Of a DNA stretch of 64,000 nucleotides, positions 20,342 to 63,121 are shown one piece after another (position 1 is the stretch's first letter; every line of letters starts with the position of its first letter). The stretch is from IMG/VR virus record IMGVR_UViG_3300051212_000550, one strand, 5' to 3'. The stretch is from a virus. Under the pieces are notes generated by a model. That model had not been told where the DNA came from. It was given only the letters and a program-made list of their open reading frames with translations, and did not search any database. A program made the translations under genes and the position numbers.

Positions 20342-21037
20342 TTAGTTTATTTCTGGGAATAAACAATGCTCAATAAACACTTTTACATCATCCTCATTTA
20401 AACCTAAGCTGGTCATAACACGTGGTGTATGTGGATTTTGTTTTTGATTCTGAGCATAGAAATTCTGCTCAACCGTGGCGTCTGCTACCTTGTTGTTAGT
20501 TTCGCCCACAGTTTCTAAATAATGATTAACAAGGATACGTGCTAGGCTTTCAATCTGATTAAGTTCGTCATCCTCTTGAACATTACCGGCTGCGACCATA
20601 TGCGGACTAAAGATACGTTGTGCCCACTCGGGTAATTCTCGTTTGCGTATCCATTCGTATCTAGATACTTCCTCGGCGAAATATTTTATCATAGGATGTT
20701 CACGATCTGTAGTGGGACTATAGTCTATGAAACATCCGGTAATTTTGTTTTTACCTGCTATGACATCAAAACCAAAAATAGGTGCCGGGTTATGGATATG
20801 TGGAAAGACACAGCAATGCATCATCCAGAGGCCCTTTGTGGATCGGGCATCGACTACATCGATATGGGCTCTGCGATAATTACCGCTGGTCCAAACACGA
20901 TTAACCCAACCCGGCTGATTGAATCTTTCCATTCCAGGTTCAAAAGTTTCTATTCCAGTATTGGAAAAACTTTTTTCAAGTAGTTCTTGAATACCAATGA
21001 GTTTATACCAAACTTTACTGTTCAATGTTTTGTCCAT
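20342..21037 (-). CDS. ferredoxin-dependent bilin reductase (PcyA/PebS/PcyX family)
   Basis: FDBR-family similarity by recognition; two residues downstream of heme oxygenase in the same operon. Confidence 0.7.
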   Translation of the reverse strand: MDKTLNSKVWYKLIGIQELLEKSFSNTGIETFEPGMERFNQPGWVNRVWTSGNYRRAHIDVVDARSTKGLWMMHCCVFPHIHNPAPIFGFDVIAGKNKITGCFIDYSPTTDREHPMIKYFAEEVSRYEWIRKRELPEWAQRIFSPHMVAAGNVQEDDELNQIESLARILVNHYLETVGETNNKVADATVEQNFYAQNQKQNPHTPRVMTSLGLNEDDVKVFIEHCLFPEIN

Positions 21038-21509
21038 TTTCGTCTACCTCTACCCAGGTATAATCACCCAACCACTTTACTCTAGTTATGTAATTATAAT
21101 CGTCCGGTGATCCTGTGCTCCAGTCATCGGGTCCGTGCTGAGTCAACAGTGTATGATTTTTTCTTGTGTTATAAACTAACCAATAACACTGACCGTGAGC
21201 TATTTGAAATTGATAAACTGCGGAGTGTACCATATCAGTTATATCAAGACGTCGTTTAATACTTGCTGCCTGCTTTTGTAAAACAGCAACCAGTTCCATG
21301 ATCCTGTTATATTCTTGTTGCCCGTGCATACGAGCAACATTGACCATAATGTCCTTTTGTTTTTCTACAGGAATTAAATCAAAAACAGGGCCTCCTACTT
21401 CTGTGGGATACGGAGTTACATTGCGATTGATAAACTGGACTAAAGAATCACCTATCTGAGAATCGAAGCTATCTTTTCCTTTTGAAAGATTACTCTTCTG
21501 ATCCTTCAT
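21015..21509 (-). CDS. hypothetical protein between HO and bilin reductase
   Basis: ORF track. Confidence 0.5.
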   Translation of the reverse strand: MKDQKSNLSKGKDSFDSQIGDSLVQFINRNVTPYPTEVGGPVFDLIPVEKQKDIMVNVARMHGQQEYNRIMELVAVLQKQAASIKRRLDITDMVHSAVYQFQIAHGQCYWLVYNTRKNHTLLTQHGPDDWSTGSPDDYNYITRVKWLGDYTWVEVDENGQNIEQ

Positions 21510-22044
21510 ATAATTCTTTCATCATTTTAATCGCCCACTCAAATGCTACTCTAGCCTCATCTCCTAAGTCGTCAGTTAGCTCAGAACGAATAGAAACTTT
21601 AAGGTCTTCCGGATTCTTAAAATCGTAGAAGCGACCTTTCGAAATATGTGCTACCTGCTTCTTGATGATCTGTCCACCATGTAAGTCTCCCATATGACGA
21701 CAATAAAGATGTGCTTTGATCTTAGGACGTTGTGTAGGATCGCGGACTAAACCTAACAGATAATTGTAGTATTCTATCGTTTCTGGTAACCACTTGTAAT
21801 TATGATCCACTCCTGCTATCTCAATAAAGTCTTGATAGATAGCGTGTGTTCTTTCTAAGCCGGGAAGATTTTTAAAATTGCCTTCTACTCGATTACCTAA
21901 TTCAATTGCATTATATACCAATACTAATTGATAAAGATAATTTGCATAGTCTTCTTTAGTAATCTTACCGCTAAGAAGCAATTTGGCGAATTGTGTTTTT
22001 TCTGCCTCGTGATGTAGGTCTTTGGTAATTTCTTTTAAACTCAT
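21490..22044 (-). CDS. heme oxygenase (HO-1 family)
   Basis: proximal His region HHEAEKTQF and YCRHMGDLHGGQ (canonical Y-x-R-Y-x-GDLSGGQ). Confidence 0.8.
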   Translation of the reverse strand: MSLKEITKDLHHEAEKTQFAKLLLSGKITKEDYANYLYQLVLVYNAIELGNRVEGNFKNLPGLERTHAIYQDFIEIAGVDHNYKWLPETIEYYNYLLGLVRDPTQRPKIKAHLYCRHMGDLHGGQIIKKQVAHISKGRFYDFKNPEDLKVSIRSELTDDLGDEARVAFEWAIKMMKELYEGSEE

Positions 22045-22054
22045 AGTTTTTTAT

Positions 22055-22312
22055 TTACTTAGGCCCATATCTCAATAACATCATCGTGGCATCTATTTCT
22101 TTATCTAGTTTAATGCAGAACGAATGAATAGTTTTTTCATATTGCCAACGTTCACCGACTGGTCCTAATATTTCTGTAAAAAAATTAATAAAGTTTTTTC
22201 TTCCTTTTTTACCAAGATTATATCTTCTAAGGTCGTGAAAAATTATCCAAAAAGAAAACCGACCAGTTTCTACATTCATATATCGTATGAACTTAAACTC
22301 GTCGGCTGTCAT
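22055..22312 (-). CDS. small protein, divergent WC..LKW family member (ERWQYEK...EIDATMMLLRYG)
   Basis: C-terminal motif shared with the 0.1-4.1 kb array. Confidence 0.45.
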   Translation of the reverse strand: MTADEFKFIRYMNVETGRFSFWIIFHDLRRYNLGKKGRKNFINFFTEILGPVGERWQYEKTIHSFCIKLDKEIDATMMLLRYGPK

Positions 22313-22313
22313 A

Positions 22314-22622
22314 TTAAACGTCTTCTTCTATAGTGATTTGTAATGGGTGGCCGTTCTGTCTACAGAGATTTGTTGCATCGATGGCTTTTTGTTCTGCAAT
22401 TTCATGAATATATAAACCAACTACAGCACTGCCTGTATTATGAATTTCCATTGTTATCTGTTCGGCAGATTCTTCGCTGTGTCTAAAAATCGTAACCAAA
22501 AGAGCAATTACAAATTCCATTGGAGTATAATCATCATTTAAAAACAATACCTTCCATTTATTAGGAGGTAGTGCCTCAACGGTCTTTGTTACTTCTTTGA
22601 TTTTGGTATCTACGGCTGTCAT
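22314..22622 (-). CDS. clpS: ATP-dependent Clp protease adaptor ClpS
   Basis: strong similarity to ClpS (KVLFLNDDYTPMEFVIALL..). Confidence 0.85.
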   Translation of the reverse strand: MTAVDTKIKEVTKTVEALPPNKWKVLFLNDDYTPMEFVIALLVTIFRHSEESAEQITMEIHNTGSAVVGLYIHEIAEQKAIDATNLCRQNGHPLQITIEEDV

Positions 22623-22644
22623 ATTTCCTCAGTATAAAGTAGTT

Positions 22645-22664
22645 GGGGGAAGTTCCCTTCCCCC
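22645..22664. other. 8-bp GC hairpin (GGGGGAAG-uucc-CUUCCCCC) between hsp20 and clpS
   Basis: seen directly; U-tract only on the plus-strand side. Confidence 0.4.
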
Positions 22665-22672
22665 TTATTATA

Positions 22673-23107
22673 TTACTTAATATCTACAATGTCAATGACT
22701 TTTGGTTTTGCAGATTCTGGAATGTTTCGAACTAACTTAATAGTTAACATACCATTCTTTGTTTCTGCACCGAGAACCTCGATATGTTCTGCCAAAGGAA
22801 ACTCCTTGACGAAGTCGCGTGTAGCGAGACCTCTGTGCAGATACTGTTCTGGAGCATAATCTGTAGTCATGCTTTCACCTTTGATAACAAGAACGTTATT
22901 TTCTACGGTTACAGAAATTTCTGCTTTATCAAAACCAGTTACGGCCAATTGAATAGCATACTCGTTGTCACCTAAACGTAAAATGTTATGTGGGGGATAA
23001 TTGTTGTTAAGGCTGTTAGCAAAACGTCTTTCCATCTGGTCAAACATTGTGTCAAAGCCAATAAGTGCTCTATTGAGAGCGTCGATTCTAGCTATTTGAT
23101 TGTTCAT
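22673..23107 (-). CDS. small heat-shock protein (Hsp20/alpha-crystallin, IbpA-like)
   Basis: alpha-crystallin domain similarity. Confidence 0.85.
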   Translation of the reverse strand: MNNQIARIDALNRALIGFDTMFDQMERRFANSLNNNYPPHNILRLGDNEYAIQLAVTGFDKAEISVTVENNVLVIKGESMTTDYAPEQYLHRGLATRDFVKEFPLAEHIEVLGAETKNGMLTIKLVRNIPESAKPKVIDIVDIK

Positions 23108-23122
23108 AATAATCTCCTTTTA

Positions 23123-23169
23123 AAGTAAGAATTTGAGCATTTTGCTCTATGTTGGGGCCCATTAGGTAC
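23123..23169 (-). promoter_or_regulatory. conserved upstream element (GTACCTAATGGGC ~22 nt AAATTCTTACTT) before hsp20; copy 1
   Basis: the same two motifs at similar spacing occur upstream of dnaK; the first lies in the loop of a 9-bp hairpin. Confidence 0.45.
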
Positions 23170-23200
23170 CCCAACATATTATACACACATTGGTGTATTC

Positions 23201-25111
23201 TTAGGATGTCTTTCCCTCGGTTTCAGTAAAGGAAGCATCAATCACTTCACCATCTGCTGGCTGCTTTTCGCTTTCTGATTTAGCAGCTTCACGTTTGGCT
23301 TTAATCTTTTCAAATAGAGGCTTAGCAGCATCTGCTACATTAAAAGGACCTTTCTTGATTTCTTCGAGGTCTTTGCTGTCGTTGGCTAACTTTTCGGCTT
23401 CAGTTAATGCATCTTCAATAGCCTTCCATTCTTCTTCTGTGGCGAGATCCTTTTCAGCTTCTAGTTCCTTGCGGATAGTGTAAAGTTCTGAAAGAGCACT
23501 ATTACGTCCTTCAATAACTTCACGTGCCTTTTTATCTTCTTCAGCAAATTGTTCTGCTTCAGAAATCATACGTTTGATTTCATCTTCGCTGATACCACTA
23601 TTTGCCTTAATGGTAATCTTGTTTTCTTTGCCTGTGTTCTTGTCCTTGGCACTTACACTTAAGATGCCGTTGGCGTCGATGTCAAAGGTGACTTCAATCT
23701 GTGGCATTCCACGAGGTGCCGGATCAATACCTTCTAGATTAAATTCACCTAACAATTTATTGTGATGTGCAAGTTCACGTTCTCCTTGGAACACACGGAT
23801 AGTAACAGCTGGTTGATTATCTTCGGCTGTACTGAAGATTTGTGTTGCCTTTGTAGGAATAGTAGTGTTCTTGTTAACCAACTTAGCCATAATGCCGCCC
23901 ATTGTTTCAATACCTAATGTCAATGGTGTAACATCTAGCAACAGAACGTCTTTGCGATCGCCAGCAAGAACTGCTCCTTGAATAGCTGCTCCAACAGCAA
24001 CAGCCTCGTCTGGGTTAACATCACGGCGTGGTGCTTTACCAAATAGTTTTTCAACTTCTTCTTGTACCTTAGGCATACGTGTCTGTCCGCCGACGAGAAT
24101 AACTTCGTCAATATCGGCAGCAGTAACACCTGCATCCTTCATAGCAATGCGGCATGGCTCTAATGAACGCTTAACCAGATCATCAACTAATGCTTCTAAT
24201 TTTGCTTTAGTTAGTTTAACAACCAAATGCTTAGGACCACTTGCATCAGCAGTGATGTAAGGAAGGTTGACTTCTGTTTGAGTAGAACTCGATAATTCAA
24301 TCTTAGCTTTTTCAGCAGAATCTTTTAAACGCTGTAAGGCCAACATGTCTTTGGTTAGATCGATTCCCTGTTCTTTCTTAAATTCTTCAACAAGGTAATC
24401 CATGATACGCTGGTCGAAGTCTTCACCGCCTAGGAATGTATCACCGTTAGTAGAAAGAACTTCAATTTGCTTGTCGCCATCTACATTAGCGATTTCAATA
24501 ATGCTTACATCAAATGTACCACCACCTAAGTCGTACACAGCAATCTTACGATCTGCTTTTTCTTGCTTGTCCACTCCATAAGCTAGTGCTGCGGCAGTAG
24601 GTTCGTTGATAATACGTAGAACTTCTAATCCAGCAATCTGTCCTGCATCTTTAGTAGCCTGGCGTTGGCTATCATTAAAATAAGCAGGAACTGTAATAAC
24701 TGCTTGAGTAACTTCATGGCCTAAATAATCTTCGGCAGTCTTCTTCATCTTGCGAAGAACTTCTGCAGAGACCTGCGGAGGAGCCATTTCTTTACCTTGG
24801 GCACGAATCCATGCATCACCATTCTTTGCCTTGGTAATTTCATAAGGCATCAGGTCGATGTCTTTTTGTACAGCTTCTTCGTTGAACTTACGTCCAATCA
24901 ACCGCTTGGCTGCATAAATTGTATTTTTTGGATTTGTTACTGCCTGACGCTTTGCACTTGCACCAACCAAGATATCGCTGTCTGTATAAGCAACAATACT
25001 TGGGGTTGTACGTGCGCCTTCTGAATTTTCGATTACTTTCGAAACGCCGTTTTCAATAACGGCTACACATGAGTTTGTGGTACCCAAATCGATACCGATG
25101 ATTTTTGACAT
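23201..25111 (-). CDS. dnaK: molecular chaperone DnaK (Hsp70)
   Basis: full-length Hsp70 ([16 protein letters not shown] etc.). Confidence 0.95.
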
Positions 25112-25127
25112 ATTTTTTCTCCTTAAA

Positions 25128-25177
25128 AAGTAAGAATTTAATGAGCTTGAGCTCGTTGTGAATAGCCCATTAGGTAC
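25128..25177 (-). promoter_or_regulatory. conserved upstream element before dnaK; copy 2
   Basis: motifs AAGTAAGAATTT and GCCCATTAGGTAC on the plus strand, as at 23123..23169. Confidence 0.45.
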
Positions 25178-25192
25178 TAATCACGTTTTTAT

Positions 25193-26212
25193 TTATCTCA
25201 CGAATACATCATTAAATTGCTTATTGACTCGAATAAATGTTGTACATTTTGATAGTTGTTTAAGACTTGGCGCTCCAACGTATGTGCAAGAGCTGCGTAA
25301 TCCACCCAAAATATCCAAAATTGTATCCTTAATAGGACCGCGATATGGAACTTGAACTGTTCTTCCTTCGCTACTACGATATTCTGCTACACCACCATGA
25401 TGTTTATTCATAGCAGTATCTGAACTCATTCCGTAGAATGTAATTTTTCCATCTTTAATTTCTCCGCCCCCTTCATCGTGTCCTGCTAGCATACCGCCTA
25501 GCATTACAAAGTCAGCTCCCGCGCCAAACGCTTTGGCAACATCACCAGGACAAGTACATCCACCGTCAGCAATAATATGACCGCCAAGACCGTGAGCGGC
25601 GTCGGCACATTCAATAATAGCACTAAGCTGTGGGTACCCAACACCAGTTTGAATACGAGTAGTACAAACACTACCAGGACCAATCCCAACTTTAACAATA
25701 TCCGCACCACGTAAAATTAACTCCTGTGTCATGTCCGCAGTAACAACATTGCCTGCGATGATTGTTTTATCTGGATAGGTCGTTCTAACTTTAGAAACAA
25801 ATTCTCCAAAATGTTCACTGTATCCGTTGGCTACATCGATACAAATAAAATGTATTCTCGGATAAGAATTGATTGTTTGCCTTAGTTTTAAAAAATCTTT
25901 ATCACTAGTGCCAGTGCTGACAGCAAAATAATCACTGCCAATATCTTCTATAGTCGTCTGTAGATATAATGTATCAATGTTCTTAACTAAACAGGTAAAC
26001 ATTCGGTGCTGATACAATTCAATGGCCATATGTAATGTACCAACACCGTCCATGTTCGATGCCATGATCGGAACACCCGACCATTCGAATTTACTGTGTT
26101 TAAATTTATATGTCCGGGTTAGGTCTACTTCTTTACGACTTGATAATGTGCTACGCTTAGGACGGATTAAGACATCTTTAAAATCTAACTTAACTTCGTC
26201 TTCGATTCTCAT
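25193..26212 (-). CDS. guaC: GMP reductase
   Basis: N-terminus [23 protein letters not shown] close to E. coli GuaC; no CBS insert. Confidence 0.85.
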
Positions 26213-26790
26213 CGGGAATCCTTTAGGGGAGAAAGTAATTGACCATCAAAGGTCGATGAAGTCCGTAGTCTACGGAAAACATTTTGTACTCCAATAGCTT
26301 GATTATATGCATCATGAAGTGCATGGTGCGCTAAGACCTCTGGACGATCTGGATTGATGCCAAGATCAAAAATTGTTCTGGTATCGCGCACCTGCCAGAA
26401 ACTCCACGGATAGCCTTTGCCGATCTTACGGAATACTGTTTCTAGAATAACAACATCAAAGCCAGCACCATGACTCCATACACGTTTACATCCCCAACAG
26501 AATTTATACAGTTGATTCATCGCATCAACGATGTCTACTCTGTTCTCTGTTCCGAATGCTTCGTCTTGTGCTTCTTTGCTTTGTTTTGCCCACCATTCGA
26601 GTGTATCTTGCGAAGTGACCAATCCCAGTCTATCACAACTGTCAATGTCTATTCGCAGATAAAAACTTTCCATTGCAGGTTCTTTGAGATCCTGACCAAA
26701 CGGATCAAATTTTACTGCACCAATACTTAGGATAGCTGCATCCGGGGTAGTGGCAAGTGTTTCAAGGTCAATCATAATATCTGAATTCAT
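26209..26790 (-). CDS. DEDD-family 3'-5' exonuclease (DnaQ-like)
   Basis: Exo I IDLET, HxAxxD motif HHALHDAYN. Confidence 0.7.
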
Positions 26791-26821
26791 AGTAATATTG
26801 TAAACTACTTTCTTTCAGATG

Positions 26822-27061
26822 TCAATATAATTTTGGTGGAAGTTTTTGATCACGTAATTTTTTCTGCCAACGTGCTTTGGCTGCTGATTTCTTACGCTTT
26901 CTTTCAGTGGTGGGCTTTTCGTAAAATTCTTTTTTACGCAATGTTTCGAGGGTACCAGCTTCTTCTACTTTCTTTTTAAAACGTTTTAAGGCACGGTTAA
27001 TATCTTCGCCTTCTTTAAGTACTACTGTATTACCGGAAGGTTTATGTGTAAATTTGTTCAT
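26822..27061 (-). CDS. rpsU: 30S ribosomal protein S21
   Basis: ALKRFKKKVEEAGTLETLRKKEFYEKPTTERKRKKSAA aligns with bacterial S21. Confidence 0.9.
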   Translation of the reverse strand: MNKFTHKPSGNTVVLKEGEDINRALKRFKKKVEEAGTLETLRKKEFYEKPTTERKRKKSAAKARWQKKLRDQKLPPKLY

Positions 27062-27434
27062 ATTTCCTAATATACTCTAATAAAGATTCTTTAAAAGATA
27101 CTGCATCGTATATATCTCTATTATTAACCATTGATAAATTTCTGAGAGGTCCAAAATAAAAACTATTTGGCTGAGCTGCCAAATAACCGTTAATTTCTCC
27201 ACAATTCGTACTTGCATTAAAGACGATTAAGTGACTTTTTGTCTTTTTATCAAAGAGCCATTTTTCATCCTCGCCTTCATTCCAGACATAGACAACAGAA
27301 TCAACTATCTCATCTATATCAGTTACTATGTCAGAAAGAAACTGAGTTTGATCAACAGTTAGATTAACACATAACACCCTAAATGCGTCTAGTAATATAT
27401 CATCGGGTGCTGTAACTAAAGTAATATTATTCAT
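27042..27434 (-). CDS. hypothetical protein
   Basis: ORF track. Confidence 0.5.
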   Translation of the reverse strand: MNNITLVTAPDDILLDAFRVLCVNLTVDQTQFLSDIVTDIDEIVDSVVYVWNEGEDEKWLFDKKTKSHLIVFNASTNCGEINGYLAAQPNSFYFGPLRNLSMVNNRDIYDAVSFKESLLEYIRKYEQIYT

Positions 27435-27714
27435 TAAATTTTAGATAAAACTTCTGCAACAATTTCAGCATCTTCAACTGAAAGATCTTCTGGTTTGATT
27501 TCTCGTGAACGAAGTTTTTTAATAAATGTCATAATTCTAGTTAGCTCAGGATCGTCTTCGTCATAAATTTCTAGATCCAAAGAACTTAGATTGTCTTTGT
27601 CGAGATTTCTGTAGATCCTGTCACGAGGAGTAAAATTATCTTCAACCGGCTGTCTTTCTTTAATTTTTTTCCAAACAGTTGAATTATTCTGTTCGCTATT
27701 TTGTTGATAGGATT

Positions 27715-28971
27715 CTATTCCGGACGAGTCTTCTTGATCTGTTCCTTGCCTTCCTTCTCGAACCAGGTCAACTCTTTTTTTTTAGAATCTTCTTCGGTTT
27801 GCTCTTCTGCCCATTCTTTGGCCTTGTCAGCTTCTTCAGTCTGGGGGTTTTCTTCCGCCCATTTCTTAGCTTCTTCGGCTGCTAGGGCTTCTGCACGTAA
27901 ACGCTCTGCTTCTTTTTCTGCTTCTTTCTCTGCTTCTTCGATCATTTTGTTCCACTGATCAATAGGCATCGGTGTTTCTTCTAATTGTTCAACACGTTGA
28001 GCTATTCTTCCCTCGGCTTCTTTGAGGAAATCTTTTTCTTCCAAAGGATTCACTGGTTCAGTTTTTTCAACTGTGGCTGCAGGAAAGGGCCATTTATTAT
28101 TTGGCGATTCTGTAAGATCCTGTGTTTCTACAGTTTCCTCTTTAATAACTGGTCCACGGACTCCATTAGAAAAGTCGTACTCTTCTCTCATTTGATCCGG
28201 ATCATTGCGATAACGGCGATGCCATTCAAAAGTCATCTGTGCAGCCAGCAACATGATAACTGCCAGTGGATCAAATACTATAACGATAAGAATGATGACC
28301 CATGTAACTGCTTTTTCTAGCATGTTCTCATCGGCACCTTTATCACCATAGATAAATTTAGCGATATATTTCAGTGGTCCAACCTCTGCTTCTACCTTGC
28401 GAACCTCGGCCGCGATTGGCGCACGTTCTGCTTGTAGTTGAGAAATGTTCTTTTGTGCTTTGACGATTTCTGCTTGTAAGGCAGCACGTTCTTTGGCTTG
28501 ATTACGACGGATCTGAACTGCACGTTCTGCACCACGATCAGTATCAGTACGACCTAGCATCTGATCGACCTGAGCATCCATTTGAGACAGTGCTTTCTTG
28601 GCCGTTTCTATATTATCTTTTTCAGTCTTGATCTTTTCATCATAGATCGCGATTTGAGATAACACATCTCCAGATACTAGATTCTGATCATTATGTGCTT
28701 TTGACAGGAACCCAAAGATTCCCATAGAAGTAATTAACATGAGCACAACTACTGATGTGCCCATGTAGTATTTCATGAATCGTGGAGCACGATTCCAATT
28801 TGCCTTTAACCAACTAGCACAGACTAATTTGGCAATCTCTAATGTCGTTCCCATAATGTAAATGGGAATCACTGCCGCAGAGAAAATAGCGGCTAAACCA
28901 ACTACTGAGTAGTAGATTGCAACCGCTGAAATTGTTAAACCAGTTAATAGTAGTAGATAGGCTAAGAGCAT
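27715..28971 (-). CDS. polytopic membrane protein with a long cytoplasmic coiled coil (AEKEAEKEAERLRAE); TAG stop
   Basis: ORF track; 4 TM helices at the N-terminus; the frame stays open for 42 codons beyond the TAG. Confidence 0.6.
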   Translation of the reverse strand: MLLAYLLLLTGLTISAVAIYYSVVGLAAIFSAAVIPIYIMGTTLEIAKLVCASWLKANWNRAPRFMKYYMGTSVVVLMLITSMGIFGFLSKAHNDQNLVSGDVLSQIAIYDEKIKTEKDNIETAKKALSQMDAQVDQMLGRTDTDRGAERAVQIRRNQAKERAALQAEIVKAQKNISQLQAERAPIAAEVRKVEAEVGPLKYIAKFIYGDKGADENMLEKAVTWVIILIVIVFDPLAVIMLLAAQMTFEWHRRYRNDPDQMREEYDFSNGVRGPVIKEETVETQDLTESPNNKWPFPAATVEKTEPVNPLEEKDFLKEAEGRIAQRVEQLEETPMPIDQWNKMIEEAEKEAEKEAERLRAEALAAEEAKKWAEENPQTEEADKAKEWAEEQTEEDSKKKELTWFEKEGKEQIKKTRPE

Positions 28972-28978
28972 TAAGCTA

Positions 28979-29674
28979 TTATGCGTTCACCAGGGTTACT
29001 GTGTCAACCAGTGTGACAGTCACATCTGTATGTGCAACTTTTGGTGTCACTGGGGATGCAACAGTAATCTGTTCTTGTCCGCCTGCTAGTCCGTCATATA
29101 CTCTAGCTGACTTAACGAATTTGTCAGTCGAAGTAACAACAGCAGCAGAAACATCAGTTAGGTAATCTGCATAACCTTTGGTAATGCCGCGAACGACTAG
29201 TTCTTTAACTGCCAATGCTGTAGTGGTACAGCTGGTAGCAGAACCTAAAGTTTCATGATCGGTCATTTTGGCAGCACCGCCGGAAATTCTTCCTTCAGCA
29301 ATTAACTGTGCTTGAACGCCAGGTAATACGAATGCATCGCGGTCATATTTAACTGTAAAAGACAATGCTGTAGTAACATCATCTGCTTCGTCTAGAGTAG
29401 ACGGACCTGCTTCTGTAGCTGTCACATCTAGAATTTGGCAATCGCTGTATCTTGAAAGATTTTGGATAACCGCTTCCCAGCGCAGATTACCTCTTGCTCT
29501 GCGTCTAGCATTTGCAATAGTCGTGTTCATTGTTGCGAAAGAATCGCCGCTATCAGGCTCAACACTACCCGAAGTCGTATTAGCGGCTGTGGAATCATAA
29601 CCACTAAGATCAATAGTAACTCTATAAAAATTAGGACTTAGCTGGTTTGTGTCTTGTTGGAATCCTGAGGCCAT
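28979..29674 (-). CDS. hypothetical protein (Thr/Ala/Val-rich, possible structural)
   Basis: ORF track. Confidence 0.5.
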   Translation of the reverse strand: MASGFQQDTNQLSPNFYRVTIDLSGYDSTAANTTSGSVEPDSGDSFATMNTTIANARRRARGNLRWEAVIQNLSRYSDCQILDVTATEAGPSTLDEADDVTTALSFTVKYDRDAFVLPGVQAQLIAEGRISGGAAKMTDHETLGSATSCTTTALAVKELVVRGITKGYADYLTDVSAAVVTSTDKFVKSARVYDGLAGGQEQITVASPVTPKVAHTDVTVTLVDTVTLVNA

Positions 29675-29698
29675 ATAAATATCTCCTTAATGTTATAT

Positions 29699-30127
29699 TT
29701 ATTCATTTACCCACATCCAACTGTCGTTTGTCTTGTTGTAGCAGGCTGTATTTTTTAATCGCTTTTCAGTTTCATGGGCGATTACTCTTATATATATGCG
29801 CCTGCAATATCCACTACCTGTAGGGTATGTAACAATGGGAACTGCTTCACCGCTAGCATTACCCCTAAACCAGCGTACACCCTGCCCATTATCTGCGTAC
29901 ATTACTGCGTGTGTAAGACTCTGATGATAGGCTATGCTTTCTTCTGTAGAAAGTGTTTTAAACCATCCGAAAGAAACATCAGATAGGCGGTTCACAAAAT
30001 CGCCGCCGCTGTATTCGAAAAACTTAGGATCGTTAAAATCAGATGCTAGTGCGTTATTGAATGTTAATAACTTCCCAATTACGACCATCAAAACAGCTAA
30101 TCGCACGATACGGAACATCTTTGCCAC
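29699..30127 (-). CDS. secreted protein
   Basis: signal peptide LAVLMVVIGKLLTFNNALA. Confidence 0.5.
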   Translation of the reverse strand: MAKMFRIVRLAVLMVVIGKLLTFNNALASDFNDPKFFEYSGGDFVNRLSDVSFGWFKTLSTEESIAYHQSLTHAVMYADNGQGVRWFRGNASGEAVPIVTYPTGSGYCRRIYIRVIAHETEKRLKNTACYNKTNDSWMWVNE

Positions 30128-30368
30128 CCTTTCTCATGTAACTTGTAAAATATCCACAATTATTAGCCATACCCAAACGTTGAGATATAACACGTTCAAT
30201 TTGATCATCTGTACATTTCACCACTGTTTTACTGTTAACAGTTTCTCGATTCTCAGACTCGATAGTCTGATAGGTATGACAGTATTGAGGTTTTTCTGCC
30301 TGAATCTTGGGAACGGAAGAACAGCCAATCAATGCTAGACTGGCTGTTAATGCGATAAAGATTTTCAT
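30054..30368 (-). CDS. lipoprotein
   Basis: lipobox LALIGCSS. Confidence 0.5.
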   Translation of the reverse strand: MKIFIALTASLALIGCSSVPKIQAEKPQYCHTYQTIESENRETVNSKTVVKCTDDQIERVISQRLGMANNCGYFTSYMRKGGKDVPYRAISCFDGRNWEVINIQ

Positions 30369-30913
30369 TGACGAGCCGCTTTCTGTTCTTTGGCTTCAGC
30401 AATTAACTGATCAAAGACAGGCTTGGGCATTTTCAGACGAACAAAAGTATAGTGACGACCGTTCATTGTAAAATGTCCGACTTCACGTTGTAGATGTTCA
30501 CGAATAGTGGTGTCGCGAACTACATAAGAAATTTTGGTATAAGTTGATTTCTTATCATCGCGGAATTCAATCTTAGTTTCGCTGTTAACTTCGCTGTTGA
30601 TGCGTTTAGCAAAATTGTTCATAGCGATAGCATACATTTGTTCTTCTGCGGCTTGTGCGTGGATTGACTCACCAGCACCACAGGCGTATGCCATTTCTTT
30701 ACTCCACCAGAACCAACCTTCAGTTCCGGCTTGCGCACAACTTTGATACCAACCGGGCTGTGCATAAGTTTTGCGATCATCGATTTCTTTCATTGACGAA
30801 CAACCAGTAATAGCCGCTGCCAACAACCCAATTGCAAGTGCCTTTTTCATATTGCCTCTTTCTGTGTGTGTTAAAGACAGTAATAATATAACACCGTAGT
30901 CAACCAGAGTCAA
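30365..30913 (-). CDS. lipoprotein
   Basis: lipobox AAAITGCSS. Confidence 0.55.
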   Translation of the reverse strand: MTLVDYGVILLLSLTHTERGNMKKALAIGLLAAAITGCSSMKEIDDRKTYAQPGWYQSCAQAGTEGWFWWSKEMAYACGAGESIHAQAAEEQMYAIAMNNFAKRINSEVNSETKIEFRDDKKSTYTKISYVVRDTTIREHLQREVGHFTMNGRHYTFVRLKMPKPVFDQLIAEAKEQKAARQ

Positions 30914-30931
30914 CTACGGTGATTACCAATT

Positions 30932-31243
30932 TTACTTAAAGAAAATCAGTGCCATAAATGTAGCTTGTAGAATAAATCCAAACCCGATTGTGGCAACATT
31001 GAGCATATCTTTGATTAGTACTGCACGGAAGAACAGCAATGTCAATCCGCCCCAGACCATTAACAAAATATCTACGCCCGGTAACTTGTCAGTTAAACCC
31101 ATCATAACTGCAAGAAATGTAGGCAATGTTGATGCATGGATAACGATAGTAGCTAACCAACCCAAAGCCTCGCTACTGATATGATTAAATTTTGTTGCAA
31201 CAAATTCTTTTGCCTTGTTAAACCAAAGTTCAAACTTTTCCAT
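30932..31243 (-). CDS. small polytopic membrane protein (possible holin-like)
   Basis: three hydrophobic segments; directly precedes the SleB hydrolase in transcription order. Confidence 0.4.
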   Translation of the reverse strand: MEKFELWFNKAKEFVATKFNHISSEALGWLATIVIHASTLPTFLAVMMGLTDKLPGVDILLMVWGGLTLLFFRAVLIKDMLNVATIGFGFILQATFMALIFFK

Positions 31244-31245
31244 TC

Positions 31246-31785
31246 TTAATCCCTATAAAAAATATGACGTCCAATTTTACCAATCTTTTCCTTGCCCCAA
31301 CGAGGATTTACATAATCTGCATGATAATACATTGCATCTCTCATTACGTCAAGTCTAAAATTTTCTAGTAAAACTTTTTTGGCGACTTTGTATGATTCAT
31401 CATAATGTGCTTGACTACGGATTGGTGGCTTGCCACCATTTTCGCAATACCATGAGAATTGGCATACGACCTTTTCGTAGATTACATTTTTTTGATATAC
31501 AACTGCGCAAACATCATTTGGGAATTTTCCACTGGCGGCACGGTTCATTGTAACCTGTGCAACTGCTACCTTTCCTTCAAATGGTTCTGTAGCTGCTTCG
31601 TGGTAGATGTTTTTAGCAAGACAATCTAGTTGGCGCTCACGATCTCGAATAGTGACTATATCGGAGTTTGAAACACCTGCTGTCAGTTTTAACTGATCAA
31701 TTTTTGCTGCTGTTACTGATTTGATCGCGGTGACTGTTAAGATCAAACCAACGATCAAAATAATAGGCTTAAAAACCTTTTCCAT
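31246..31785 (-). CDS. SleB-family cell wall hydrolase (candidate endolysin)
   Basis: CLAKNIYHEA...EGKVAVAQVTMNR matches the Hydrolase_2/SleB core; N-terminal signal-anchor. Confidence 0.7.
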   Translation of the reverse strand: MEKVFKPIILIVGLILTVTAIKSVTAAKIDQLKLTAGVSNSDIVTIRDRERQLDCLAKNIYHEAATEPFEGKVAVAQVTMNRAASGKFPNDVCAVVYQKNVIYEKVVCQFSWYCENGGKPPIRSQAHYDESYKVAKKVLLENFRLDVMRDAMYYHADYVNPRWGKEKIGKIGRHIFYRD

Positions 31786-31788
31786 ATT

Positions 31789-31998
31789 TTATCTCCTTTC
31801 ATTTGGTGTCACGATTAACTGTGACATTACATTAAGGGAGTAAACTTCACGAGGCTCTTGAAAGAACCCTGGGTTCGTGTAGTTGTTCTCCATTGGACGC
31901 ACAATCTCATAACTTGTGTGCCTTTGGAGCCTTGACCGCCCGAATCTCACGGGTTTCTCATAGGCCAAGACTCGCGGAACCGTTTCAGCTTTTGACAT
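31789..31998 (-). CDS. hypothetical small protein
   Basis: ORF track. Confidence 0.4.
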   Translation of the reverse strand: MSKAETVPRVLAYEKPVRFGRSRLQRHTSYEIVRPMENNYTNPGFFQEPREVYSLNVMSQLIVTPNERR

Positions 31999-32034
31999 AC
32001 TTTGGTTCTACTATCTTAGTTTCTTTGCGAAACG

Positions 32035-32598
32035 TTAATTATATAGTTCATCTTCAACATTATAGCACGAAAATAGGCGATTATTGAGCTGTTTTGTCCA
32101 AAAATCGTCAAACCAATAACGATCATACTGCACCGGTGCATTAATCGGACAAAAACTTCTTTTCGTAGCACGATAAGGAACAATATGTTCTAGTTTCATT
32201 AATTCAACACCATTACACTTACATAAATCTTGAAAATATAATTCGAAACTATTAATATCCACATCAGAAAACCATTCTGTATGCCCTGCTCTACCATTTT
32301 TAGAAGCGAGACATCTACCTTCATAGATTGATTTTAATTCATTCTCTATGTCAGCGATTACTCGGTTGTCATATAAGGTTCTTACAATCCAGATATGATC
32401 AAATTGTATTTCTTCATCTGTTCCCTGCTGTTGATTTCGAAGTCGTTGCCAAGGGATATCCATTACTCCAAATTTAGAGTTTCCACGAGGGCTGGTTCTA
32501 AAATAGAAAAACTTATATAGGTAATTGGACATTTGCTGTTCATTAAGTTCGACATGAAAAAACTGATGAAACAGATTTCCTGATTTGCGTGGTTTCAT
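32035..32598 (-). CDS. hypothetical protein
   Basis: ORF track. Confidence 0.5.
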   Translation of the reverse strand: MKPRKSGNLFHQFFHVELNEQQMSNYLYKFFYFRTSPRGNSKFGVMDIPWQRLRNQQQGTDEEIQFDHIWIVRTLYDNRVIADIENELKSIYEGRCLASKNGRAGHTEWFSDVDINSFELYFQDLCKCNGVELMKLEHIVPYRATKRSFCPINAPVQYDRYWFDDFWTKQLNNRLFSCYNVEDELYN

Positions 32599-32972
32599 TA
32601 ACGCCTCATCTTAGAAATTTCAACTGCTTCTTCATCACTGAAAATAGGTACTGCATTACTTTTATGCATAGTGCCGATTCCCTTGACCTTTGTTCCAGTG
32701 TAAACTTTCTGTTCTGGTTTAGTACAAGGGCCACCAGTAAACGGCAGGCTAGGAATACGCTCTGTTTCTCGACGATATGCTGGTTTTTCTAACAAAGGAG
32801 AGGGTTTTGTACTTTTTGGAATGGGGTTTGTTGACTCATACTTCTTAAGTAAAAGACTCCATGATTCTTCTAGTTCGCGAGCCTTACGTGCTTCTTCGGC
32901 GTTGCGAAATTTGCGTTTGCCTTTTTTCTTACCTGTAGTTGATAACCACGGGCCTTCTAAATGCATACTCAA
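32598..32972 (-). CDS. hypothetical basic protein
   Basis: ORF track. Confidence 0.5.
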   Translation of the reverse strand: MSMHLEGPWLSTTGKKKGKRKFRNAEEARKARELEESWSLLLKKYESTNPIPKSTKPSPLLEKPAYRRETERIPSLPFTGGPCTKPEQKVYTGTKVKGIGTMHKSNAVPIFSDEEAVEISKMRR

Positions 32973-33036
32973 AATATATCTCCAAATGTTTACTGAGCTA
33001 TTAGTATAACATCTTTATAGGAAAAGTCAATAAAAA

Positions 33037-33057
33037 ACCCGCCGAAGCGGGTTTTTT
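33037..33057. terminator. bidirectional intrinsic terminator (ACCCGC-cgaa-GCGGGT flanked by A6/T6)
   Basis: seen directly. Confidence 0.75.
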
Positions 33058-33075
33058 ATTTTGGAGAGCTATGTA

Positions 33076-33147: not shown

Positions 33148-33246
33148 AGTGTTTCTCCTTTACTAACAACAATAAAAACATACTATTGCAACAGTATGTA
33201 TCACTATTATAAGGCAAAATCATCATGAAAACCATACTGAAAATCA

Positions 33247-38865: not shown

Positions 38866-38866
38866 T

Positions 38867-57997: not shown

Positions 57998-58419
57998 TGT
58001 GTGCGATCCTTATTATCAACGGCACCGCCGGTAACCCAGGATGTGCAACTGCGATCTCCTGCGCATTTAAAATGATGAAAATTACAGTATCCCAAATCTG
58101 CTTTATGTATTGTGGCCATAGCATCAGTTTCTTTGCTGTCGCCTTTGATTCCATCTTCGATACACTGCCACATCTTATCCGAAACATCAAAAGCTGCACA
58201 GTTTCCGCACTGCATAGTCTTGGCAGTCTTTTCTGTAATACCCCAACGCTTGGCTGCATCCTTCCAATATGATTCCGGCTCATCTGGATTAGCAGGACCA
58301 TAGTGATATTCGTCTATGGCCTTCTGGCGGTTTTTTAAGTTAACATCAATATCATATGTGGCAATAGGACAGCCTTTGTTAGCTGCTTCTACGATATTAA
58401 TATATTTTCTGTAGGTCAT
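57994..58419 (-). CDS. hypothetical Cys-containing protein
   Basis: ORF track. Confidence 0.5.
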   Translation of the reverse strand: MTYRKYINIVEAANKGCPIATYDIDVNLKNRQKAIDEYHYGPANPDEPESYWKDAAKRWGITEKTAKTMQCGNCAAFDVSDKMWQCIEDGIKGDSKETDAMATIHKADLGYCNFHHFKCAGDRSCTSWVTGGAVDNKDRTQ

Positions 58420-59729
58420 AGTTCATCCCATCCTATAGCCCAGCATTGGCTGGTTATATTGGTAGTAGTCGTTACAGCAATAACAAATTCGTAGTTTACT
58501 CCTGTAAATGTATTACGTTCTAATTGGAACTTAAAAGGAAATCCTGTCAACGACGGTGCTACACTGGCTTGATTTGTAGCTATAACATAGCCTTCGTCAA
58601 TGATCCTACCATTAGTATAACTGGTGGGAGTTAGATTATATTCTACAGAAGATGTTGCGCCAGTATCTGACCATTCACCACCTGTAGTAATAGCCTGCTG
58701 TATAATAAAGTACTGATAGTTAGCTGATGTTAAAGGAGCAAAACTGAAGTTAGTTGGTATGACTACAGCATTGTCTCTGCCTGCTTTTAATCTAATGCTC
58801 AGCATAGGAACTGCTGTGTTGACCTGTGCTTGGTTGGTGGATCTTGGAGTAACCAAAGAGTGACCTATAGCTCTAGCACGACCTGCGAGTTCGTAACCGC
58901 CTTCAGATATCACAGACTGACAGATAAACTTTAGTGTGTCACTGACTCCTGTAGCACTAGTGTTTTCTATTTCGTAGCGTAGAGGCAATCTTGCCGTGCC
59001 CATGTAGGTAGTAGTTAGTCCTGCTGTGTTAGCGTGATCCCATCTATGGCAGGGAATAAATTGCCCGTTTATAACAAAGCCCATAGTAGCTGAGCCTACA
59101 CCTAACCATTCTATATTAGTGTACAATATCTGTGATGTTGCTAAATCTAATACGATCTTATCCGCATCTGTGCCATCTAGTTTACTAATGTTCCAATCTG
59201 ATTTGGCAATACGAGTTGTTTGTAAACTACCACTTGAACTGCTTCTACGCACAAAATAAACGTCTAGTCCGTCTTGTTCTAGATAAAAACCGTTGGCTGA
59301 ATCAAAGTATCCTACACGCTGTCTTAGTCCTGCGCGGGCCGGTGCCATACAAAAAGTTTCTAACACCAACAAACTCTTGCCTGGTTGATAGGCAAATACT
59401 CTTGTGCTTTCTCTGTAGACCTTACTGCCATTGGTACCATCTACTGTCATTGCTAGGGCACTACTGTTGGTATTGTGTAGTGTGCTTCCGCCACTGGCTG
59501 TAAAGTTTACAAATCCATCAACATTGTCGTAGTACTTACTAGAGTTATCAAATAGTGTAAATGGATCACTGGTCCTAAAACGACCAAATGCATCAGTGGC
59601 TGTAGGGCCTAGAGTAGTTCTTAAAATAGGACGACCTAGGACATCATACTGCATTACCTTATGTAAATTTAACAGATTGGGTTCGTCTGCATGTACATAA
59701 TTGGTAGAATTTTTATTACGAACGCCCAT
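58416..59729 (-). CDS. 437-aa beta-rich virion structural protein candidate
   Basis: ORF track; composition typical of jelly-roll/fibre proteins. Confidence 0.45.
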   Translation of the reverse strand: MGVRNKNSTNYVHADEPNLLNLHKVMQYDVLGRPILRTTLGPTATDAFGRFRTSDPFTLFDNSSKYYDNVDGFVNFTASGGSTLHNTNSSALAMTVDGTNGSKVYRESTRVFAYQPGKSLLVLETFCMAPARAGLRQRVGYFDSANGFYLEQDGLDVYFVRRSSSSGSLQTTRIAKSDWNISKLDGTDADKIVLDLATSQILYTNIEWLGVGSATMGFVINGQFIPCHRWDHANTAGLTTTYMGTARLPLRYEIENTSATGVSDTLKFICQSVISEGGYELAGRARAIGHSLVTPRSTNQAQVNTAVPMLSIRLKAGRDNAVVIPTNFSFAPLTSANYQYFIIQQAITTGGEWSDTGATSSVEYNLTPTSYTNGRIIDEGYVIATNQASVAPSLTGFPFKFQLERNTFTGVNYEFVIAVTTTTNITSQCWAIGWDEL

Positions 59730-60400: not shown

Positions 60401-60443
60401 TTGGGTTCTCCGATCTAATATTTAGCGGTTAAATACGCTTACT

Positions 60444-61634
60444 ATGATCAACAAAGAACCATTCAAACATCTAATCAAAGACCTCAAAGATACAGGAAAA
60501 TACCGTGTGTTTAACGATATTGTGCGTGAGCGAGGGCAATTTCCTAAAGCTATTTGGTACGGACCTTATAATATTAAAACTATAGTTAATTGGTGTTCAA
60601 ACGATTATTTGGGAATGGGACAAAATAAAGTAGTCCTTGATGCTATGCACACAGCATTAGATCAAACTGGTGCGGGATCAGGCGGCACCCGTAACATTGG
60701 TGGTACCAGTCATTATCACGTAGCATTAGAACACGAGCTTGCTATGCTGCATAACAAGAGCAAAGCACTGTTGTTCAGCAGCGCCTATGTTGCTAACGAA
60801 TGGACTATTATCGCTCTAAGTAAAATCATAGACAATATACAGTTTATTTCGGACAGTAAAAATCATAACAGTCTGATTGTTGGTATACAACATTCGAAGG
60901 CACCAAAGCAGATATTCGAACACAATAATTTAAATGATCTAGAAGATAAACTAGCACAGAGCAAACTTGCAGGATTTACTCCTTGCATAGTTTTTGAATC
61001 AGTTTACAGTATGGATGGTGATGTTAGCCCAATTAAAGATATCTGTGATCTCGCAGATCGTTATCAGGCAATAACATACATTGACGAAGTACATGCGGTA
61101 GGGCTCTACGGGACGCACGGTGGCGGAAAAGTAGAAGAATTTGGTTTAGAATCCCGAGTTGATATAATCAACGGTACGTTAGGGAAAGCCTTTGGAGTCC
61201 AAGGTGGCTATGTTGCTGCCGATGCTGATGTTGTTGATGCCATCCGTTCTGTAGCTGCTGGCTTTATCTTTACAACATCAATGAGTCCTGTGGCCTGTGC
61301 TGGAGCACTGGCTGCGGTTAAATGGCTTAAAGATCACAACGAAGTTCGGGTCAAGCATCAAGAACGTGCTGCTAAACTAAAGCAACTATTAAAAGAAAAT
61401 GAGCTGCCTGTTATGGACAGCTCAACTCATATAGTTCCAGTTCTAGTAGGGGATGCTAAGAGATGTAAATCAATGAGTGACAAACTGTTAGAGGATCACA
61501 ACATCTATGTACAACCAATTAACTATCCTACTGTTGACGTAGGTACTGAGCGGTTGCGCTTTGCTCCTACTCCATACCATGATGACTCTATGATGAGCAA
61601 TTTAATATCTGCTCTCAAGGACGTTTTTCAATGA
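60444..61634 (+). CDS. hemA: 5-aminolevulinate synthase (glycine + succinyl-CoA, C4 pathway)
   Basis: [47 protein letters not shown] and PLP-Lys [12 protein letters not shown] match ALAS rather than BioF/Kbl. Confidence 0.75.
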
Positions 61635-62205
61635 TCTTGTCAACAAGTCCGTAGTCTAGAGCTTCTTGTGCGCTCATAAACTTATCACGTTCCATATCAC
61701 GAGCAAACTCATCATAGGTCTTGCCTTTGCTGTTATGCTTGACATAGATCTCAGTAAGATACTTTTTCATCTTTAGTATCTCTTCTGCTTGGATCTGGAT
61801 GTCTGTGGCCTGTCCACGAGCACCGCCACTGGGTTGATGGATCATATGGCGAGCATTAGGCAACATGAAACGTTTGCCTGCTGCTCCTGACTGTGCTAAT
61901 AGACTGCCCATGCTACAGGCCTGACCCATTACATAGGTGGCGATATCACACTTAACGAACTGCATAACATCATAGATAGCCATACCTGCTGTCACTACTC
62001 CGCCGGGGCTGTTGATAAACAGATTGATATCCTTCTTGGGATCTTCGGACTCTAGGAACAATATCTGAGCCACAATTAAATTACTCATCATGTCTTCCAC
62101 AGGACCATTTAACATGACAATACGTTCTTTGAGTAGACGACTGTAAATGTCATAGGCACGTTCGCCCTTGCTTGTGGATTCAACTACTACTGGTACTAGA
62201 CTCAT
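61615..62205 (-). CDS. clpP: ATP-dependent Clp protease proteolytic subunit
   Basis: Ser GQACSMGS, His HQPSGG; start moved to MSLVPVV, which aligns with the mature ClpP N-terminus. Confidence 0.9.
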
Positions 62206-63121
62206 TCTTCTTCCTTTTCTTGAATTGTTCAACTTGATTACCGATCCAATTGATTACGTTTACTTTAGGTTCGTAACCCAATTGTTTTAATTTGGTTATG
62301 TCCGCAAAGGTTAAACGCACCTGTCCAATCCTATCCGGAACCTTAACCTGCTTATTACTGACAACGTCAGCAATTTCTTTAACACTGGTCGATGTTCCTG
62401 AACCAATGTTATAGATCTCATCACGCATACCCTTTTCTATTATAAGCTCTAATGCTTGAACAGCATCAGATGCATGTACAAAGTCTCTGCGTTGATCTCC
62501 ATCACCATGTATAAACAAAGGTTGATCATCAACCAATGCTTTCATGTAACGAGGAATCATTAATGCCCTGTCACCATAGTCCATATATGCCCCATACATG
62601 GTAAATGGTCTAACAATTATCAGTTCCGTTATCCAAGCCTTTTGGCTCTGCACACGCAACGCCCATTCAGCTGCTAGTTTACTAACTGCATATGGACTGC
62701 TGGGATTCAGTGCGCCATCTTCAGTTTGGGCTTCTTGTCCATTGTTGCCATACACAGAGCTAGAACTGATGTAGATAAACTTTTTGATATTGTATTCTTG
62801 ACATAGCTGAAAGAACTTGTGTGTATCTGCTATGTTAGTTTTATAATAACTTTGATATTCTAACCAACTGGGATCTATCCTAGCACGATTGGCACAATGT
62901 ATCACAACATCAACTTTATCCAATAGGGCTGCATAGACAAATAGATCATTGTAGAGATCTGCTTTGGCTATTTCGATATTTGGGTCTAGGGGTTCTAGTT
63001 GAAAGTTAGTCCATTCTCCTGGATCTTGATCAACTAACACAAGATCATACTTGTCTTTTAGATAGTGAGTTATGTTCCTACCCAAAAAGCCAGCTGCTCC
63101 TGTAACTAAAATGCGTTTCAT
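62180..63121 (-). CDS. NAD-dependent epimerase/dehydratase (SDR family)
   Basis: GAAGFLG Rossmann motif; catalytic YAVSK. Confidence 0.8.

Follow-up and report, generated by a model that had tools for sequence, protein, structure and literature searches.

The window analysed here is a 64 kb stretch of DNA (39.4% GC) from the IMG/VR virus record IMGVR_UViG_3300051212_000550, in which nearly every gene lies on the minus strand. It carries a two-piece (circularly permuted) transfer-messenger RNA gene (tmRNA, ssrA), together with genes for the proteolytic subunit ClpP, the adaptor ClpS, the chaperones DnaK and Hsp20, and ribosomal protein S21 (Table 1). An initial annotation had described this set as a self-contained toolkit for ribosome rescue and degradation of tagged proteins. 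ARAGORN, Rfam and Pfam found all six genes where it had placed them; its observation is confirmed, and its interpretation is partly supported. The chief new element of the locus is the tag encoded by the tmRNA, which is extended, phage-specific, abundant and under selection.

The window is phage DNA, as annotated. PHROGs assigned a virion structural protein to 58416-59729 (phrog_1645, 339 bits) and a tail spike to 43778-45313, along with a phage ATPase and a phage exonuclease; Pfam, run on all 117 window open reading frames (ORFs) of 40 amino acids (aa) or more, identified no bacterial core genes among them. No close or cultured relative at the DNA level was present in a collection of 50,697 phage records: megablast with positions 20342-40000 of the window gave no match at all, and blastn with the tmRNA returned only T-arm fragments covering at most 16% of it. 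Relatives of the window ClpP at 83-98% identity came from metagenomic sources only, on contigs of up to 351-360 kb, and the exact protein also occurs on a 72.9 kb JGI contig. Because several related IMG/VR contigs reach 351-367 kb, we infer that the lineage is an abundant, uncultured jumbo phage with a genome of about 350-365 kb. ClpP has relatives in more than 592 viral contigs (75-88% identity for the best 80), and the long-tag tmRNA was matched in more than 119; contig counts and intersections of contig names are lower bounds throughout. About 600 loci, cited below by L numbers, were fetched around matches to the tmRNA, ClpS, ClpP, ClpX and AhpC and scored with tblastn and ARAGORN.

Table 1. 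Features of the window, with positions counted from its first nucleotide.
Feature	Position	Strand	Basis or remark
Two-piece (circularly permuted) tmRNA, ssrA	36573-37028	-	ARAGORN (tmRNA*), Rfam
tmRNA acceptor piece: T-arm GGGTTCGACTCCC, acceptor strand CTGGTCC, discriminator A, encoded CCA	36915-36977	-	Sequence, Rfam alignment
Tag reading frame: 26 codons from resume codon GCA, then TAA; encodes ANDDAFDFAAMSFNGNTVGGRVALAA	36664-36744	-	ARAGORN, Rfam
GC-rich hairpin with T-run (intrinsic terminator), 3' of the coding piece	36590-36618	-	aaagcgaccttcgggtcgctttttt read on minus strand
ClpP proteolytic subunit	61615-62205	-	ATG at 62205; ORF extendable to TTG at 62232
ClpS, N-degron adaptor for ClpA	22314-22622	-	Pfam 98.5 bits vs 23
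Hsp20 small heat-shock protein	22673-23107	-	Pfam HSP20 58.7 bits
DnaK (Hsp70), full length	23201-25111	-	Pfam 845 bits
Ribosomal protein S21	26822-27061	-	Pfam 70.1 bits; TIGR00030 66.8 vs 28.95 cutoff
GMP reductase	25193-26212	-	Equivalog, 552 bits
Rv2179c-like 3'-5' exoribonuclease	26209-26790	-	Pfam PF16473 139.9 bits
AhpD-like and AhpC peroxiredoxin pair	35405-36498	-	Pfam CMD, AhpC-TSA; NCBIfam matches below cutoffs
5-aminolevulinate (ALA) synthase, adjoins ClpP	60444-61634	+	NCBIfam TIGR01821, 570 bits
tRNA, anticodon CTA (amber)	8387-8462	-	ARAGORN ('Pyl' by default label); Rfam tRNA 62.4 bits

Permuted tmRNA and its extended tag

ARAGORN identified the permuted tmRNA at 36573-37007(-), and two Rfam models recovered it above their gathering thresholds: beta_tmRNA (RF01850) with 145.9 bits against 84, at 36676-37028(-), and tmRNA_permuted (RF04321) with 145.3 bits against 47. 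The gene is arranged in the order acceptor piece, intervening segment, coding piece. The encoded CCA occupies 36915-36917, and the coding piece begins with GGGCCAG (36828-36822), which pairs with CTGGTCC to give an acceptor stem with G3:U70, the alanine identity pair. Among the 212 related phage permuted tmRNAs whose acceptor stems could be parsed, 202 have seven standard pairs and 203 have G3:U70, and five compensatory stem variants were observed (GGGCCTG/CAGGTCC, GGGCCAG/CTGGTCC, GGGGATG/CATCTCC, GGGCCGG/CCGGTCC and GGGGGAG/CTCCTCC). The resume codon GCA (36744-36742) falls at the Rfam consensus position, the stop codon TAA lies at 36666-36664, and the coding part reported by ARAGORN corresponds to positions 264-344 of the tmRNA gene. 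The hairpin 3' of the coding piece was also marked by a terminator scan, but as a plus-strand site. The covariance score, the permuted order, the acceptor-stem covariation and the tag frame all fit a tmRNA that looks functional.

As annotated, the tag ends in ALAA. Its residues 1-10, ANDDAFDFAA, resemble a proteobacterial tag such as ANDERFALAA; no stop codon follows them, and 16 further residues lead to the ALAA end, giving 26 in total. A degenerate pattern of the tag region matched more than 119 IMG/VR contigs, and ARAGORN, run on the matched contigs, returned 113 tmRNAs with the common core D[TA]FDF.A[ML]SF[TSN]GN[TS]V. The core is followed by variable ends (such as GGRVALAA, SGKSKVALAA, RGAANESRFALAA and ANDSRFALAA), and the conserved insertion measures 15-20 residues.

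Because the tag pattern is degenerate at third codon positions, a source of bias, the nonsynonymous-to-synonymous ratio (pN/pS) was calculated only from 24 tmRNAs, with 19 unique sequences, that had been located through patterns lying outside the tag ORF. For the tag core pS was 0.396 and pN 0.077, giving a pN/pS of 0.195, compared with 2.2 and 2.5 in the shifted frames. The tag is translated, and by these values the peptide, not the RNA alone, is under purifying selection.

When searched against 185,579 species genomes, the tag-region pattern gave two matches, close to the chance expectation by a rough estimate, and neither was a tmRNA. The long tag is therefore a feature of the phage lineage, and its origin as a copy of a host tag was rejected. 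Long tags of other phage subfamilies differ from it (ANASTFEYFTVEGFTADNGLVAA, AKSAFKFYEVDVAVNDSKFALAA). Tags of at least 20 residues are encoded by 136 of the 250 permuted tmRNAs in the fetched loci, a sample enriched by the searches used. Since bacterial tags of 8-35 residues are known (PMC9753991), tag length alone is not unprecedented. Four loci (L048, L063, L214 and L261) contain permuted tmRNAs with long tags ending in ESFAV or AAFA, not LAA (e.g., AKASTGEVTVSGKGVKFSARTVKAESFAV); these ends may reflect a different protease specificity.

Clp proteins and gene linkage in related contigs

The window ClpP is a true ClpP, in agreement with its annotation. It matched the Pfam family over its full length (61615-62232) with 272.6 bits (cutoff 20.2) and the NCBIfam subfamily model PRK00277 with 317 bits (cutoff 249), and fell slightly under the cutoff of the strict equivalog TIGR00493 (294 versus 308.6 bits). 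Its identity to bacterial ClpP is about 60% over the full length, and solved structures of bacterial ClpP, among them E. coli 1tyf (E = 1e-76), align with it along its whole length. Alignment with the top structure, 8r05, showed that the Ser/His/Asp motifs (GQACSMG, MIHQP, ERD) are kept, as is the E. coli-like axial N-terminus MSLVPVVVE.

Of the 250 tmRNA loci, 25 (L006, L007, L009, L010, L039, L058, L062, L067, L602 and others) also contain a second, divergent ClpP paralog, absent from the window, at 1.5-3.5 kb from their tmRNA. This paralog is about 185 aa long and 28-32% identical to the window ClpP, with Pfam CLP_protease scores of 101-115 bits and Ser/His/Asp motifs. It stands beside a canonical ClpP in L156 and within 2-4 kb of one in L145 and L155. 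The tmRNA-linked copies belong mostly to another phage clade, with short tags and contigs of 160-175 kb.

ClpS scored below its NCBIfam equivalog cutoff (96 versus 149 bits). It keeps the N-degron pocket residues (NDDxTxM ... H), as LNDDYTPMEFV and the His in IHNTG, which align with solved ClpS structures; the closest of these are chains of the ClpS adaptor, such as 3dnj and 1mbu, which we take to be those of Caulobacter and E. coli. Relatives of ClpS occur in more than 529 viral contigs. The neighbouring DnaK exceeded the cutoff of equivalog NF001413 (979 versus 648 bits), and GMP reductase and the Rv2179c-like exoribonuclease sit between DnaK and S21. In 78 ClpS loci, Hsp20 was present in 77, DnaK in 63, S21 in 60 and the exoribonuclease in 57; heme oxygenase accompanied ClpS in 73 and bilin reductase in 68. 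The exoribonuclease belongs to the conserved ClpS-DnaK-S21 block, where its role is putative.

Pfam searches of the window ORFs and tblastn probes detected no SmpB, ClpX, ClpA, SspB, DnaJ or GrpE in the window; the SmpB and ClpX probes were E. coli sequences, and for DnaJ and GrpE no window ORF matched the Pfam families. Of the core made up of tmRNA, SmpB, ClpX and ClpP, the 64-kb window carries only the tmRNA and ClpP, and ClpP without an unfoldase cannot degrade proteins. Because SmpB and an unfoldase are absent and ClpP alone is insufficient, the term "self-contained" is wrong for the window: the gene set adds to host quality control and does not replace it. Neither the window nor 6.4 Mb of sequence from related loci contained a ClpA-like AAA+ protein. 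In the same loci SmpB was absent beside every phage-type permuted tmRNA; its only occurrences, in L019 and L023, adjoin host-like tmRNAs of the one-piece type. The placement of ClpS in tagged-protein degradation did not hold either, as the E. coli protein is the N-degron adaptor of ClpA and is reported to inhibit ClpAP on ssrA-tagged substrates (Dougan 2002, cited in PMC6102473).

Three blocks of window genes are each conserved in dozens of the hundreds of related IMG/VR contigs that encode such genes: ClpS-Hsp20-DnaK-S21, tmRNA-AhpC/AhpD-ribonucleotide reductase (RNR), and ClpP-ALA synthase. They lie 14 kb and 25 kb apart, so the proposed toolkit is not a single module. A permuted tmRNA was found in 46 of the 79 AhpC loci, at a median gap of 1 kb, and an ALA synthase neighbour in 58 of the 80 ClpP loci. 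All three of tmRNA, ClpS and ClpP are encoded by at least two other contigs, IMGVR_UViG_3300044701_003267 (53 kb; L567, L297, L081) and IMGVR_UViG_3300044640_001495 (353 kb; L594, L311, L120). At least nine further contigs combine the tmRNA with ClpS, and at least two combine it with ClpP. ClpS and ClpP are separated by about 39 kb in the window and by 42 kb on a contig of 364 kb, and on a 114 kb contig (L577) only 5 kb separates the tmRNA-AhpC pair from ClpX and S21. As related viral contigs combine the same genes repeatedly, their co-occurrence is more than chance, and the recurrence of the blocks does not fit scattered host-derived cargo without co-conservation.

A sister lineage encodes ClpX next to these genes, in a compact module (ClpX-S21-Hsp20-ClpS-ClpP) of about 5 kb. 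In L147 (3656-10588), ClpX (Pfam zf-C4_ClpX and AAA_2) is directly followed by S21, Hsp20 and ClpS, with ClpP 3.6 kb downstream; a SprT-like protein and ORFs without a family match lie between ClpS and ClpP. The ClpX probe matched in L147, L148 and L150, with Pfam confirmation in L147. Across 80 sister-lineage ClpX loci (L448-L527), ClpP was present in 64, ClpS in 77 and Hsp20 in 79. The median gap was 0.85 kb between ClpX and ClpS and 4.4 kb between ClpX and ClpP (range 3.4-7.6 kb). The sister-lineage ClpP is 61-77% identical to that of the window, and the module occurs on contigs of up to 524 kb. Phage ClpP, ClpS and Hsp20 are thereby linked to an unfoldase of the ClpX type.

Proposed relation to host quality control and alternative explanations

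A complete two-piece ssrA was previously described in the large aquatic Methylophilales phage Melnitz (Buchholz et al. 2022, PMC9004378). That study covered 18,146 phage genomes and counted 53 two-piece tmRNAs, 50 of them aquatic. Melnitz and the pelagimyophages likewise combine a complete circularly permuted ssrA with a lytic-looking large aquatic phage. Unlike theirs, the window gene has a 26-residue tag with a conserved insertion, and no glnA riboswitch of the Melnitz ssrA kind was detected at the window tmRNA. Clp genes are unmentioned in the Melnitz paper (PMC9004378). Huge phages of >200 kb encode tmRNA, SmpB, S21, tRNAs and translation factors, read as redirecting host translation (Al-Shayeb et al. 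2020, PMC7162821); the words "Clp" and "chaperone" do not occur in the main text of that article. SmpB is reported there, in contrast to the window and to the surroundings of related phage-type permuted tmRNAs. With bacterial trans-translation (E. coli, Caulobacter) the window shares G3:U70, the GCA resume codon, an AND..ALAA tag and a canonical ClpP. It differs in the 15-20 residue insertion of the tag and, compared with the bacterial ClpXP/SspB system, in encoding only the RNA and the peptidase, with SmpB, ClpX and SspB absent.

The co-occurrence of tmRNA, ClpP and ClpS in a phage had been presented in the initial annotation as undescribed, which is only in part correct. Phage Atu_ph07 encodes ClpX, ClpA, ClpB, ClpP and ClpS (PMC6102473), and its relative AP-J-162, a Sinorhizobium phage, encodes a tmRNA, six Clp proteins, Hsp20 and DnaJ (PMC11242549). 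No paper linking a phage tag with phage Clp proteins was found in the literature. Like the window, Atu_ph07 holds ClpP (72% identical to the window protein) and ClpS in one genome; unlike the window, it has its own ClpX, ClpA and ClpB, and AP-J-162 has its own clpX. Both infect soil rhizobia, as does Phosso, whose first 50 kb contain ClpP and no tmRNA, and none of the three is close to the window at the DNA level. Among the Pseudomonas jumbo phages of the PA5oct group, a 287 kb genome encodes ClpS (42% identical) and ClpP (52% identical) at a spacing of about 8 kb, and both proteins are much more distant from those of the window. The present analysis adds the extended tag and the recurrent linkage of tmRNA, ClpP paralog, ClpX, ClpS and Hsp20 in giant aquatic phages. 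To our knowledge, the action of phage tmRNAs or phage Clp genes during infection has never been shown.

The explanation we lean towards is that the window carries a conserved accessory set which augments host translation rescue and protein quality control during infection. The two-piece phage tmRNA would be processed and then charged with alanine by the host alanyl-tRNA synthetase (AlaRS), and host SmpB and EF-Tu would bring it to ribosomes that have stalled because their mRNA is broken or lacks a stop codon. These ribosomes would be released, and the phage-specific 26-residue tag ending in ALAA would be added to the nascent chains. ClpX, either that of the host or, as in the sister lineage, one encoded by a phage gene beyond the window, could then pass tagged chains to ClpP, with the phage ClpP increasing peptidase capacity or making up the peptidase core. 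ClpS may bind host ClpA and thereby shift ClpAP to N-degron substrates, leaving ssrA-type substrates to ClpXP. DnaK and Hsp20 would act as holding or refolding chaperones for proteins of both phage and host, and S21 may aid ribosome takeover. The net effect would be that ribosomes and amino acids stay available for phage protein synthesis. These predicted biochemical steps build on the identity and integrity of the genes, on their conservation and linkage in relatives and on the selection acting on the tag. All components are real and, judged by sequence, look functional, which counts in favour of the proposal. It is also in line with the roles proposed for phage tmRNAs, namely upkeep of the hijacked translation machinery or tagging for amino-acid recycling (PMC9004378), and with the reading of huge-phage genomes (PMC7162821).

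Several points weigh against such an accessory set. The window contains no SmpB, ClpX or ClpA, and no SmpB lies beside the related permuted tmRNAs. The window genes are split into three separate blocks, and the conserved neighbours of the tmRNA are the redox and nucleotide genes AhpC, AhpD and RNR, not Clp genes; a tmRNA occurs within 10 kb in just 3 of the 78 ClpS loci and in none of the 80 ClpX loci. By analogy with E. coli, the activity of ClpS would oppose degradation of ssrA-tagged proteins by ClpAP. Co-occurrence on contigs may be no more than inheritance of a large syntenic genome from a common ancestor, as opposed to selection for a shared task, and the link among the genes is so far a genomic one.

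An alternative is that these are independent auxiliary genes, each useful alone, that co-occur merely via a shared large syntenic accessory region, and we regard this as possible, with less confidence than the accessory set. The genes would then serve ribosome recycling, ribosome takeover, virion protein folding and turnover of particular regulators of host or phage, with no phage pathway leading from tag to ClpP. Besides the three blocks, the AhpC/AhpD and RNR neighbourhood of the tmRNA and its distance from ClpX, this is favoured by ALA synthase being the conserved neighbour of ClpP. The authors of the Atu_ph07 study also proposed diverse, separate Clp roles, suggesting clearance of aggregates and regulation of replication (PMC6102473). 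However, independence accounts poorly for the tmRNA and ClpP paralog as immediate neighbours in 25 loci of other phage clades, for the presence of tmRNA, ClpX and S21 inside 6 kb in L577, and for the ClpX-type ALAA end kept across the tag subfamily.

Two proposals assign a more specific function to the tag insertion. In the first, which we consider speculative and rather unlikely, the insertion is a phage-evolved degron, a recognition element that sets phage-tagged proteins apart from host-tagged ones and couples them to phage Clp components (ClpP, the ClpP paralog and the sister-lineage ClpX) or to another protease, forming a private proteolytic branch of trans-translation. Such a branch might be fed by read-through from the amber-suppressor-like tRNA(CTA). 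In the second, which appears doubtful, the insertion is a binding site for a phage or host factor (adaptor, anti-adaptor, chaperone or protease), so that phage-tagged proteins are handled differently from host-tagged ones, for example by preferred delivery to phage Clp, by delay, or by routing to Lon or FtsH. Peptide-level purifying selection (pN/pS 0.195 versus 2.2 and 2.5) fits a binding site, as do the occurrence of the tag in more than 119 viral contigs with no tmRNA match in 185,579 species genomes and the different long tags of other phage subfamilies, some ending in FAV or AAFA. Mycoplasma tags, studied by Gur and Sauer in 2008, are likewise said to have lengthened as specificity switched to Lon. 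However, plain ClpXP recognition of the canonical ALAA end would suffice, the insertion could be a mere spacer or be constrained by the ribosome or the mRNA, and known tags span 8-35 residues (PMC9753991).

It is highly improbable that the window ClpP is a prohead maturation protease and that the other genes came from the host as chance passengers or represent bacterial DNA binned by mistake. Prohead proteases with the ClpP fold are used by many phages, ClpP-like genes were matched by tblastn in 809 phage records, and RefSeq labels the Atu_ph07 and PA5oct homologues "head maturation protease", but structure alignment and NCBIfam scores led to rejection of this assignment: the protein is about 60% identical to bacterial ClpP, axial N-terminus included, and exceeds the subfamily cutoff while staying below that of the head-maturation model NF045542 (108 versus 120 bits). 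In addition, its window neighbours are ALA synthase and an epimerase, with no head genes, its sister-lineage counterpart adjoins ClpX and ClpS, and the window contains phage structural genes and no bacterial core genes.

With a defined phage-specific tag and a canonical ClpP, the question is open to direct test. Should tag and Clp proteins cooperate, the locus would offer a clear example of a virus that uses a degron of its own to extend a quality-control pathway of the host, with a bearing on how jumbo phages sustain translation while dismantling the host. If they do not, it still maps the proteostasis genes that giant aquatic phages keep together.

Other genes of the window

The tRNA of the initial annotation is real, with anticodon CTA, and is located outside the 20342-62232 range to which it had been assigned. 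A tRNA(CTA) recurs in related loci (L017, L025, L040, L033, L055, L084 and L087) and in 14 of the 79 AhpC loci, often 1-6 kb from the tmRNA. Window ORFs end in TAA (75), TGA (37) or TAG (5), and two of the five TAG codons are on doubtful plus-strand ORFs. Rare TAG together with tRNA(CTA) may indicate amber suppression or recoding, with read-through as a source of non-stop ribosomes.

The AhpD/AhpC pair lies 75 nt downstream of the tmRNA and is up to 95-96% identical in relatives. It is a conserved tmRNA neighbour that forms the genomic context and stands outside the proposed pathway. Glutaredoxin and class I RNR genes were found at 39147-43318. Beside ClpS are genes for heme oxygenase, a DUF2452 protein and a PcyA-like ferredoxin-dependent bilin reductase (ORFs 21490-22044(-), 21015-21509(-) and 20342-21037(-)). 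ALA synthase, heme oxygenase and bilin reductase could form a route from ALA through heme to bilin.

A Pol-beta nucleotidyltransferase, also listed in the initial annotation, was not recovered, as no window ORF of at least 40 aa matches such a family at E<=1e-3. ORF 11434-12144 was rejected as a candidate; it has a GS...DxD-like motif by eye only and no NCBIfam match. The ORF at 16953-19331(-) encodes a 792 aa protein with an apparent signal peptide by eye, about six tandem Cys repeats (C..NPLY...C.GY..AY.DQQC) and a Thr/Ser-rich region, and gave no Pfam or PHROG match.

Two groups of related ORFs were observed. The adjacent paralogs at 15709-16185(-) and 16198-16848(-), which have no Pfam match, share near-identical N-terminal halves (MSEEKDLNKAVDDL..KEKYLS.NTVISIGGY.FTPAKLMIA...) and have coiled-coil-like tails. 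About 15 small ORFs of 70-132 aa occupy 144-5277(-), and many of them end, by eye, in ..A..F.LKW(L/S/A), as in VFQLKWL, MFAMKWS, NFTLKWL, MFILKWL and LFVLKWL; from these shared ends they appear to be a multi-copy paralogous family.

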